A DNA stretch of 64,000 bases from Escherichia coli (GTDB lineage Bacteria > Pseudomonadota > Gammaproteobacteria > Enterobacterales > Enterobacteriaceae). The stretch is taken from the NCBI RefSeq assembly GCF_003334765.1, contig NZ_QOWT01000001.1. One strand, given 5' to 3'. The translations under genes were made by a program, and so were the position numbers. Under the pieces are notes generated by a model. The model had not been told where the DNA came from and did no database searches. It saw only the letters and a list, made by a program, of their open reading frames with translations. This document shows, in pieces, positions 2,139-4,124 of this stretch (position 1 is the first letter of the stretch; each line of letters starts with the position of its first letter).

Positions 2139-2276
2139 ATGAGTAATATCAGTTTGTATTGTTTGCCATATTCAGGTGGTTCTGCCGCTATGTACTATAA
2201 ATGGCGTAACGTGCTGTCGGACAATATTACTTTGAAGCCTTTAGAACCTGTGGGGAAGGGGAATGAACAGTGATTT
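2139..2276 (+). pseudogene. Orphan N-terminal fragment resembling a type II thioesterase (45 codons)
   Basis: MSNISLYCLPYSGGSAAMYYKW... resembles the conserved thioesterase N-terminus (CFPYAGGS...Y..W); preceded by GGAGG; terminates as the next gene starts. Confidence 0.3.
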
Positions 2277-3495
2277 TTCCGCGAAAAAAATCCTGACGGG
2301 TGAGGATGTCCTGTGTGCGGCCGTTCACCGTATTGAGTGGTTGTTTGAGACATTTTCTTCTGTCTGTTTGTCTTTTTCCGGAGGAAAAGACTCTACTGTG
2401 CTGCTCCATCTTACGGCCGATGTGGCTCGCAGGAAGAAACGTCGTTTCTCTGTATTATTCATTGACTGGGAAGCTCAGTACCAGTGCACAATTGCACACA
2501 TTCTGAAGATGAGGGAGATGTATCGGGATGTGACGGAGACTTTTTACTGGGTGGCACTCCCCCTGACTACGGTAAACGGTGTCTCTCAGTTTCAGCCGGA
2601 ATGGATATGCTGGGAACCAGGTGTGGAGTGGGTTCGTCAGCCACCAGATGACGCTATTACAGATATGTCGTACTTCCCATTTTATCGGTATGCCATGACG
2701 TTTGAAGAATTTGTTCCGGCATTTTCTTCCTGGTTTGCCGGTAACCGGTGTGGAGTGGCAATACTGACTGGTGTTCGTGCTGATGAATCGCTCAATCGCT
2801 TTGTGGGACTGGTGTCTCAGCGCAAACTGAGATATGCAGATGATAAACCCTGGACCACAGCGTCACCTGAAGGGTTTTATTACACCTTGTATCCGTTGTA
2901 TGACTGGAAAGCTCGTGATATATGGATATATAACGCCAGAACCCGAGCTATCTACAATCCCCTGTATGACCTGATGTACCGTGCCGGCGTGCCGTTACGC
3001 AACATGCGGGTCTGTGAGCCTTTTGGCCCGGAACAGCGTAAGGGACTGTGGCTTTACCATGTTCTGGAGCCGGAAACCTGGGCCAGGATGTGTGAGCGGG
3101 TGTCGGGTGCTGCCAGCGGGGCGCTTTATGCCAATGAGAGCGGTGCCTATTTTGCCCTGCGTAAGCGTATCACGAAGCCACCTCATCATACCTGGCGTAG
3201 CTATGCGATGTTCCTGCTGGATGTGATGCCGGAAAGAACGGCAGAACATTACCGTAATAAAATTGCTGTCTACCTGCGCTGGTATCAGACGCGGGGCTTC
3301 CCGGATGACATCCCGGATGAACAGGAGAATGACCTGGGGAGCCGGGATATCCCGTCCTGGCGACGTATCTGTAAGACACTCATAAAGAATGATTTCTGGT
3401 GTCGGACCCTCTCCTTCAGTCCGAACAAACCCCGGCACTATGAACGTTATCTGCAGCGTATGAAAGAAAGGAGGAAGGAATGGGGGATTCTGTGA
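2263..3495 (+). CDS. ibrA: IbrA-like PAPS-reductase-family (PP-loop ATP pyrophosphatase, DUF3440-type) protein
   Basis: 410-aa ORF with PP-loop motif SGGKDS near the N-terminus; overlapped by a ParB-like partner gene; assignment by recall of the IbrA/IbrB pair. Confidence 0.65.
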   Translation: MNSDFSAKKILTGEDVLCAAVHRIEWLFETFSSVCLSFSGGKDSTVLLHLTADVARRKKRRFSVLFIDWEAQYQCTIAHILKMREMYRDVTETFYWVALPLTTVNGVSQFQPEWICWEPGVEWVRQPPDDAITDMSYFPFYRYAMTFEEFVPAFSSWFAGNRCGVAILTGVRADESLNRFVGLVSQRKLRYADDKPWTTASPEGFYYTLYPLYDWKARDIWIYNARTRAIYNPLYDLMYRAGVPLRNMRVCEPFGPEQRKGLWLYHVLEPETWARMCERVSGAASGALYANESGAYFALRKRITKPPHHTWRSYAMFLLDVMPERTAEHYRNKIAVYLRWYQTRGFPDDIPDEQENDLGSRDIPSWRRICKTLIKNDFWCRTLSFSPNKPRHYERYLQRMKERRKEWGIL

Positions 3496-4124
3496 CACCT
3501 GAGGTGGAAGTATTGAGCAACATGATTCGACAGTACTTCAGTCAGGAACGATCTGAAGAAGAGACCATACGAGCCCTTAATCATCTGCGCAGGGTGTTGC
3601 ATGAGGTCAGCCCTTTTGCACAGGAGCCTGTGGACTGTGTGTTGTGGGTGAAAGCGAATGAGGTGGTGGCCAACGATTACAATCCCAATGTCATGTCTTC
3701 CAGTGAAAAAAAACTGCTTAAACATTCACTGGAGCAGGATGGATTCACGCAGCCTGTGGTGGTTTCGGAAGAGAAGGAGCATTATCTGGTAGTGGATGGT
3801 TTTCATCGTCAGTTGCTGGGCAGGAAAGCGGATACGAGAAAACGTCTGAAGGGCTGGCTGCCAGTGGCCTGTATTAATCCAGAGAGAAAGGGACAGGCAT
3901 CACGTATTGCCGCGACCATACGGCATAACCGTGCCAGGGGAAAACACCAGATAACGTCAATGTCTGACATTGTCAGGGACCTTTCGCGTCTGGGCTGGAC
4001 AGATGAGCGTATTGGCACAGAGTTGGGCATGGATCAGGATGAAGTGCTGAGGCTCAAACAGATTAGCGGGCTGACAGAGCTGTTTCAGGAAGAGAATTTC
4101 AGCCCGGCATGGACGGTTCGTTGA
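3480..4124 (+). CDS. ibrB: IbrB-like ParB/sulfiredoxin-like nuclease-domain protein
   Basis: 214-aa ORF overlapping the upstream gene by 16 nt; contains a VVDGFHR motif typical of ParB/Srx-fold proteins; start may be the internal Met (MIRQYF). Confidence 0.6.
   Translation: MGDSVTPEVEVLSNMIRQYFSQERSEEETIRALNHLRRVLHEVSPFAQEPVDCVLWVKANEVVANDYNPNVMSSSEKKLLKHSLEQDGFTQPVVVSEEKEHYLVVDGFHRQLLGRKADTRKRLKGWLPVACINPERKGQASRIAATIRHNRARGKHQITSMSDIVRDLSRLGWTDERIGTELGMDQDEVLRLKQISGLTELFQEENFSPAWTVR

Follow-up and report, generated by a model that had tools for sequence, protein, structure and literature searches.

What do the paired genes ibrA and ibrB do in the bacteria and phages that carry them? The question is raised by a 64,000-nucleotide (nt) stretch of Escherichia coli DNA (the window; RefSeq assembly GCF_003334765.1, contig NZ_QOWT01000001.1), in which a PP-loop protein resembling phosphoadenosine phosphosulfate (PAPS) reductase and a ParB/sulfiredoxin (Srx)-like protein are encoded by two overlapping genes. 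A first-pass annotation, made from the sequence, had seen in them a candidate DNA-targeting system, perhaps sulfur-transfer or defence cargo of the Dnd/Ssp type. Such pairs have been described before and are commonplace in E. coli. We find that it is a phage module, and we tentatively explain it, giving this reading rather less than an even chance, as a phage-derived, DNA-targeted, ATP-dependent modification module of which gene activation would be a downstream effect.

An intact IbrA/IbrB gene pair

The locus comprises the following features:

2263..3495, + strand: ibrA, ATG start, 410 amino acids; PP-loop ATP pyrophosphatase/adenylyltransferase-type enzyme (predicted), PAPS-reductase-like domain plus DUF3440
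3480..4124, + strand: ibrB, ATG start, 214 amino acids; ParB/Srx-fold N-domain, then a C-terminal helix-turn-helix (HTH)
2377..2394, + strand: SGGKDS PP-loop of IbrA (ATP alpha-beta pyrophosphatase motif), residues 39-44, read from the sequence
3789..3809, + strand: VVDGFHR motif of IbrB, residues 104-110, read from the sequence
3469..3474, + strand: AGGAGG ribosome-binding site (Shine-Dalgarno) of ibrB, within the 3′ end of ibrA

The open reading frame (ORF) list and the sequence bear out the gene structure first proposed, in which the 410-residue frame with its SGGKDS motif overlaps the VVDGFHR frame by 16 nt (3480-3495). The AGGAGG inside the end of ibrA is separated by 5 nt from the ATG of ibrB, an arrangement that fits translational coupling. 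Compared with the O157, ST131 and plasmid alleles of E. coli, both genes have a ratio of nonsynonymous to synonymous substitution rates (dN/dS) of 0.08-0.24; ibrA and ibrB are here intact, real genes under purifying selection. From base 823 onward the window is 100% identical to several E. coli chromosomes, and both annotated genes lie within that DNA.

The pair belongs to the IbrA/IbrB (YbdN/YbdM) family, named in 2002, and shows all of the defining features of that family that can be tested. The first-pass annotation had already noted the resemblance, which is upheld by the PGAP names ('phosphoadenosine phosphosulfate reductase' for IbrA and 'IbrB-like domain-containing protein' for IbrB) and by identities of 92%/87% to the proteins annotated as IbrA/IbrB in Escherichia phage PhiR5_2; the corresponding values are 91%/90.5% for the O157:H7 island copy and 60%/57% for K-12 YbdN/YbdM. 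The IbrA/IbrB of E. coli ECOR-9 (Sandt, Hopper & Hill 2002, J Bacteriol 184:3640, as related in PMC6008420 and PMC4541368) share the architecture, gene order and short overlap of the window pair, and nothing structural differs; the window copy differs in its neighbours, which are clb-like remnants and cobUST, with no adjoining antirepressor genes. As cited in PMC6008420, Sandt 2002 reported that ibrA and ibrB together activate eib genes in trans. The earlier statement that the biochemistry of these proteins is not established also held: no biochemical activity or functional study of IbrA/IbrB was found in the literature searched, where searches by name were swamped by iBRB and Ibrahim.

Complete E. 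coli genomes often have a related pair, in 2241 of 5426 cases (about 41%) and in addition to the K-12 paralogue ybdNM, with up to four copies per genome and 81 places on plasmids. More broadly, the IbrA family forms 1094 clusters at 50% identity (E below 1e-10). K-12 YbdN/YbdM (b0602/b0601) are the same two-domain proteins in the same order, with an overlap of 28 nt between ybdN and ybdM, but they have a fixed place on the chromosome and a LysR repressor dedicated to them, whereas the window pair is cargo of an island flanked by insertion sequences (IS).

Phage and viral context

Genes like ibrA are present in 224 phage records, with hosts that include Flavobacterium, Mycobacterium, Streptococcus, Arthrobacter and Bacillus and so span Gram-negative, Gram-positive and actinobacterial groups, and at least 331 stretches of IMG/VR were confirmed to carry them. 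The partner gene comes along: an IbrB-like gene adjoins ibrA in 64 of 79 IMG/VR loci, directly downstream in 26 and directly upstream in 38, with ibrA-ibrB junctions in viral loci typically of -28 to +18 nt and short overlaps of -4 to -28 nt being typical. Among distant metagenomic IbrA homologues, three of three have a gene of about 180-206 codons directly downstream, with a ParB_N match in two and no Pfam match in the third. The pairing also recurs in phages of five host genera and in K-12 ybdNM, and we regard the IbrB partner as shown to be obligate. Conservation as a gene pair, on which the first-pass proposal had been made to depend, is evident both here and in the E. coli genomes counted above.

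The viral neighbours of the pair belong to replication and packaging. A SNF2-type helicase adjoins it in 14 viral loci, and other recurrent neighbours are Erf, an exonuclease, a replication initiator, DnaD and DnaB; in 11 IMG/VR loci a large terminase (TerL) lies 0.5-7.5 kb downstream on the same strand. In mycobacteriophage Gadjet the pair is directly upstream of TerL, with no small terminase (TerS) annotated; in Arthrobacter phage Kovu it is followed by an acetyltransferase, TerS and TerL; and in Flavobacterium phage FCV-1 it lies between terminase and portal. Elsewhere it sits next to a methyltransferase and further ParB-like genes (a Bacillus phage), within the replication module (Streptococcus phage PY1) or beside antirepressor genes (Escherichia phage PhiR5_2). 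Among about 33 viral contigs of at least 30 kb in IMG/VR, a hand count finds 17 with ibrA no more than 5 kb from one end, where about 24% would be expected; being about twice the uniform expectation, this fits a position near genome termini or packaging genes. The literature gives no sign of lysogeny for Flavobacterium phages of the FCL-2 type. We conclude that ibrAB is a phage module, and its carriage by phages in replication and packaging modules argues for a phage function rather than a host defence system.

Small proteins of several kinds accompany the viral pairs. One of about 138 amino acids is encoded between the ParB-like gene and ibrA in 15 IMG/VR loci (for example at 9453-9869 of locus L037) and matches neither Pfam nor PHROGs; another of about 131 amino acids adjoins the module in seven IMG/VR loci (for example at 9618-10013 of locus L020), is fused to the IbrA N-terminus in the homologue P0242, and has no Pfam match and an unannotated PHROG only. 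The accessory small proteins of the viral loci as a whole (clusters c2, c6, c9 and c10) yielded no Pfam or PHROG annotation.

IbrA: a PP-loop protein with no conserved cysteine

The assignment of IbrA to the PP-loop, PAPS-reductase-like proteins, first made from its SGGKDS motif, is supported by Pfam, NCBIfam and structural matches. In Pfam it consists of PAPS_reduct (PF01507, in two pieces) and DUF3440 (PF11922, 8e-25), an architecture found in 120 of 120 among the homologues listed, and its PHROGs match is phrog_2302 (6e-83), which is placed in the category of auxiliary metabolic genes. In an alignment-based AlphaFold model (predicted local distance difference test, pLDDT, 90; a single-sequence model with pLDDT 35 was discarded) the protein is predicted to fold into an alpha/beta PAPS-reductase-like domain at about residues 16-240 and an all-helical DUF3440 domain at residues 242-410. 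The nearest solved fold to this model is the PAPS domain of human FAD synthase (match values 17.0, 23%), followed by ATP sulfurylase CysD (16.1, 22%), APS/PAPS reductases (14-16, 16-19%), TilS (12.9, 14%) and TtuA (11.9, 18%). FAD synthase/FMN adenylyltransferase (FMNAT), CysD and the APS/PAPS reductases are thus the best matches by both structure and profile, with tRNA thiolases and amidotransferases lower; PDB sequence searches gave no close solved relative of either IbrA or IbrB.

Conservation was assessed over 55 IbrA homologues at 27-83% identity. Eight residues (G41, K42, S44, D68, E70, S176, D219 and Y235) are invariant in 55 of 55, while S39, G40 and D43 of SGGKDS are kept in at least 52 and R172, E175 and the YN motif in at least 50. 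The invariant PP-loop and site residues indicate that ATP alpha-beta pyrophosphatase or adenylyl-transfer activity is conserved and, judging by these residues, IbrA is an enzyme rather than a scaffold. No cysteine column is conserved across the 55 homologues: the best, at position 98, reaches 80% and is Ala in the window IbrA, and C251, C370 and C380 are conserved at just 55-60%. The reaction would therefore need neither an enzyme persulfide nor an Fe-S cluster, and the lack of an obligatory Fe-S cluster or catalytic persulfide places IbrA outside CysH and outside DndC as defined in PMC10853773. A metagenomic homologue of 631 amino acids (P0389) carries an intein-like insertion of about 240 residues in its catalytic domain, which splits the WDYN...YD motif within YN.

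IbrB: a ParB/Srx-fold protein with a helix-turn-helix

The ParB/Srx-like assignment of IbrB likewise stands, on Pfam, a family profile against the PDB and conserved motifs. Pfam ParB_N is weak for the window protein and significant in 20 of 42 family members; the 42 homologues have in common the NDYNPN, DGFHR and TIRHNRARGxH motifs and the C-terminal HTH, with G107 invariant and D106, F108, H109 and R110 at least 90% conserved. PHROGs matches are phrog_2159 (6e-87), the HTH family phrog_6831 over residues 160-193, and the ParB-methyltransferase family phrog_498. Against the PDB the family profile finds the N-domains of ParB and Noc (2e-5 to 5e-4) and the ParB/Srx-fold kinase SbnI (7e-3), with SerK not significant (E 0.75-0.83). 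In alignment to ParB (4umk), DGFHR stands in place of the box II nucleotide-binding motif (GERRxR); the DGxHR form is that of DndB, Srx and SerK-type members. Binding of ATP, CTP or GTP has been shown for ParB-fold domains joined to a methyltransferase, an acetyltransferase, a DndB-like domain or others (bioRxiv 10.1101/2025.10.10.680097), and it is therefore a reasonable inference, by analogy, that IbrB binds a nucleoside triphosphate (NTP).

A proposed DNA-targeted modification module

The reading that we tentatively favour is of a two-gene, translationally coupled module of phage origin that would act on DNA. IbrB would provide the targeting, its C-terminal HTH binding DNA and its ParB/Srx N-domain binding, and probably turning over, an NTP. 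IbrA would provide the chemistry, its PP-loop splitting ATP at the alpha-beta bond and adenylating an oxygen acceptor which, by analogy with FMN adenylyltransferase and CysD, would most likely be of the phosphate type. DNA, or a factor bound to it, would thereby be changed covalently and independently of sulfur. In phages the change might mark or protect progeny DNA before packaging; in E. coli islands, eib co-activation might be a downstream consequence of it. What has been observed are the domain families, the conserved catalytic residues, the lack of a conserved cysteine, the obligate pairing, purifying selection and a setting among phage and packaging genes; that IbrB binds an NTP, that DNA is the substrate, what kind of acceptor is used and how gene activation is linked to it are the parts that we infer. 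Late-expressed DNA-modifying enzymes, such as Mom of phage Mu or phage Dam, act at the packaging stage, and where the pair adjoins packaging genes, as it does in three unrelated phage lineages, its place suits enzymes that mark DNA shortly before it is packaged. A bolder and more specific version, which we consider unlikely, is that IbrAB installs an undescribed adenylation-dependent, sulfur-independent DNA change that shields packaged phage DNA from host nucleases and, in bacteria, switches on silenced foreign genes; the change might take the form of a backbone or 5′-end adenylate, or of a substituent added by way of an adenylated intermediate.

Several observations weigh against a DNA-modifying module. 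The sole experimental phenotype is transcriptional, the DNA modification and its substrate being our proposal, and all that is known of the K-12 operon ybdNM is its repression by YbdO/CitR (PMC9068703). The pairs of Streptococcus phages and of many IMG/VR contigs lie in an early replication module and not by packaging genes. Neither a cognate restriction gene nor a reader gene accompanies the pair, and the helical DUF3440 domain has no structural match among solved folds. Finally, no sigma-70-like promoter was found on the + strand between 1500 and 4600, hence none before ibrA, and since the K-12 paralogue is moreover repressed, the window copy of ibrAB may be silent.

Alternative explanations

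The transcriptional phenotype could also be the primary one. IbrB might be a nucleotide-gated ParB-fold regulator like VirB or KorB that loads onto DNA and relieves the silencing of horizontally acquired genes, with IbrA as a structural co-activator or as the maker of IbrB's nucleotide ligand, an adenylylated small molecule; we consider such a switch unlikely. It would accommodate the only reported phenotype, prophage eib co-activation for which both genes are needed (Sandt 2002, as given in PMC6008420 and PMC4490671), along with the HTH and ParB N-domain of IbrB and the use of CTP, ATP or GTP as switches by ParB-fold proteins (bioRxiv 10.1101/2025.10.10.680097). Its regulatory surroundings are also suggestive: K-12 ybdNM is kept off by a dedicated LysR repressor, the gene for which, ybdO, is itself reported to be H-NS-regulated (PMC9068703), PerC-family regulators adjoin ibrAB in the O157 and ST130 islands, and antirepressor genes adjoin the pair in PhiR5_2. 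A purely structural IbrA would, however, leave the invariant PP-loop and substrate-site residues unexplained; a terminase-portal or pre-TerL position in three unrelated phage lineages is odd for a regulator acting before the late genes; and, since upstream regions vary between loci, no conserved cis site travels with the pair. These same positions might be taken to mean that the pair serves DNA packaging or genome ends directly, the ParB-like protein aiding recognition or cutting by terminase and IbrA adenylating 5′-phosphate ends, so that an AppDNA-like cap would protect the termini or prime their re-sealing. Adjacency to TerL, TerS or portal in mycobacteriophage, Arthrobacter and Flavobacterium phages, the absence of an annotated TerS in Gadjet, the 11 IMG/VR loci with TerL downstream, the excess of ibrA near contig ends and the closest folds, which adenylate phosphate or sulfate oxygens, all point this way. 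Yet Kovu encodes its own TerS, many loci have the pair among replication genes and far from any detected terminase, and the chromosomal and plasmid copies of E. coli are kept by purifying selection with no packaging genes, so that a packaging role appears quite improbable.

Host anti-phage defence or self-marking of the Dnd, Ssp or BREX-4 type, with IbrA thiolating or marking host DNA and IbrB as a DndB/DpdB-like partner or nuclease, is close to the possibility raised by the first-pass annotation, and it has lost ground to the point of being very improbable. In its favour, a ParB-fold protein is paired with a PAPS-reductase-like one in Dnd as well, the pair sits on an island that holds IS remnants, the O157 and ST130 islands encode a Mokosh-like SF1 helicase some 500 bp upstream of it, and PADLOC gives weak matches of IbrA to BrxP (7.8e-6) and DndC (1.3e-3 and 1.3e-2). 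The BrxP match, however, spans only 70 PP-loop residues (29-98) and the DndC matches have no passing stretch, so that the PADLOC check yielded PP-loop-level resemblance and no complete system; the family has neither the conserved cysteines nor the Fe-S site expected from PMC10853773; no Dnd, Ssp or BREX partner (desulfurase, DndD/E, SspB/C, PglZ) and no restriction or effector gene was found in the window or at the ST131 and plasmid loci; and the family abounds in phages, as counted above. Support by way of the neighbours was set aside, as the Mokosh-like helicase is missing from the window and from the ST131 and plasmid loci. Scarcely credible, finally, is a sulfur-assimilation auxiliary metabolic gene, that is, a true PAPS/APS reductase (CysH-like) or ATP sulfurylase subunit, as the PGAP name, the PHROGs category and the resemblance of the fold to CysH and CysD would have it; the rise of the cys regulon in a ybdO mutant that derepresses ybdNM is a weak and indirect lead in the same direction. 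Against it, IbrA scores far under the NCBIfam cut-offs for CysH (NF002537; 32.3 bits against 154) and CysD (33 bits against 195). CysH depends on a catalytic Cys in its C-terminal ECGLH motif, whereas the IbrA family conserves none; the invariant SGGKDS points to ATP pyrophosphatase chemistry and not to PAPS reduction; and neither the obligate ParB-like HTH partner nor the phage replication and packaging context would make sense.

Were the favoured DNA modification to prove true, it would be a new chemistry in phage-host conflict and would explain how some islands come to activate prophage genes that are otherwise silent, the serum-resistance-linked eib genes among them; were the pair a regulator only, it would be a further example of a nucleotide-gated ParB-fold switch. 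Databases call IbrA/IbrB a 'PAPS reductase', a 'sulfur auxiliary metabolic gene' or a 'co-activator of prophage gene expression'. On the comparison made here we take the first two labels to be mistaken and the third to describe what is probably a secondary effect; the phage and packaging context together with the cysteine-free active site offers a concrete and testable hypothesis for the chemistry of IbrAB.

Genomic surroundings and other E. coli copies

The description of the setting as a decayed island with IS remnants and pseudogenes proved accurate. On its 5′ side the pair is preceded by an IS110-like fragment, by transposase pseudogenes and by clbP/clbQ-like remnants, the last with annotations as ClbP peptidase and thioesterase; on its 3′ side it is followed by a TonB-dependent receptor gene in disrupted form, an IS4 remnant, cobUST, ldtA and tRNA-Asn. 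RefSeq annotation of identical DNA gives two of the remnants as:

1922-2092: ClbP remnant, C-terminal end, 'precolibactin peptidase ClbP'/serine hydrolase
2139-2261: thioesterase remnant, ClbQ-like, N-terminal 41 codons

The thioesterase remnant stops at the ibrA start codon, which places a deletion or recombination junction there. Further upstream, the ORF at 121-576 is presumably the C-terminal half of an IS110-family transposase, and the strains whose identity to the window is 100% from base 823 on have no match to its first 822 bases. The TonB-dependent receptor gene 3′ of ibrB (4495-6668, - strand) is broken into ORFs 4495..5673 and 5700..6668; it is whole (2148 nt) in KN12-1 and an ST131 strain, and in elppa4-type strains it is frameshifted and interrupted by IS3. 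No terminator-like site was found on either strand between 1500 and 4600, and only two inverted repeats lie near the operon. Neither was accepted as a binding site: the imperfect repeat within ibrA is read as the product of a repeated D-I-P coding motif, and the 10-nt palindrome at 4273-4286 was likewise rejected.

Other E. coli copies are likewise cargo bounded by IS elements, and a plasmid copy lies between transposase fragments. In the O157:H7 (locus L095, 5798-13160) and ST130 (locus L097, 4798-10847) islands, ibrAB lies between an SF1 helicase of 722-893 amino acids on the 5′ side, which resembles the helicase part of Mokosh MkoA/MkoC (PADLOC 5e-44), and a PerC-family regulator on the 3′ side, where there is also a 214-amino-acid hypothetical protein; ST130 ibrA has an internal stop. 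This helicase-ibrAB-PerC arrangement may be a larger conserved island module, which is not in the window. At the K-12 locus (L094, 6748-9619), published RNA sequencing of a ybdO deletion has ybdN up by 5.5 log2, ybdM by 2.5 log2 and the cys regulon by 2 to 2.8 log2. We dropped these data as a functional clue: the rise of flagellar genes is probably a strain effect, since another LysR mutant of that study shows it too, and the rise of the cys regulon is uninterpretable.

Comparison with known systems

The pair fails the defining features of DndC/Dnd, Ssp, BREX-4 BrxP, CysH, canonical ParB and Dpd, and it does not have the look of any anti-phage defence system described so far. DndC requires a three-Cys 4Fe-4S site plus a distinct Cys dyad (PMC10853773); IbrA lacks both and has DUF3440 instead, the DndC model is absent among its NCBIfam matches, and no DndA/IscS, DndD or DndE is encoded beside ibrAB. 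With BREX type 4 the resemblance is confined to the PP-loop region of BrxP, and no PglZ, BrxC, BrxL or desulfurase gene lies near ibrAB. IbrA is no member of CysH, being below the family cut-off and lacking a conserved Cys, and IbrB departs from canonical ParB, which has a GERRxRA box II, a ParA partner and parS: its box II is DGFHR, its only NCBIfam match is Noc (22 bits against a cut-off of 315), no parA is nearby and no convincing parS-like palindrome was found near the operon. As for Dpd, which makes 7-deazaguanine modifications in DNA, there is no TGT-like gene next to ibrAB and no PADLOC Dpd match for IbrA or IbrB. Even the nearest folds, the PAPS domain of FMN adenylyltransferase/FAD synthase and CysD, have no DUF3440 and no ParB partner and act on small-molecule substrates, so that the resemblance is one of chemistry, not of membership.

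A likeness of plan is nevertheless apparent. A ParB-fold protein is paired with a DNA-modifying enzyme in both DndB-DndC and DpdB-DpdA (PMC10853773, PMC12839542), and ParB-methyltransferase fusions, which bind ATP (bioRxiv 10.1101/2025.10.10.680097), join a ParB-fold NTPase/DNA-binding module to such an enzyme. The partner in ibrAB is a PP-loop protein, whereas it is a transglycosylase in DpdA and a S-adenosylmethionine (SAM) methyltransferase in the ParB fusions; in DndB-DndC, of the DNA phosphorothioation system, a ParB/Srx-fold protein has as its partner a PAPS-reductase-like PP-loop ATP pyrophosphatase whose target is the DNA backbone (PMC10853773). By analogy, ibrAB may work 'like' DndB-DndC or DpdB-DpdA, as a ParB-fold partner coupled to a DNA-modifying enzyme.

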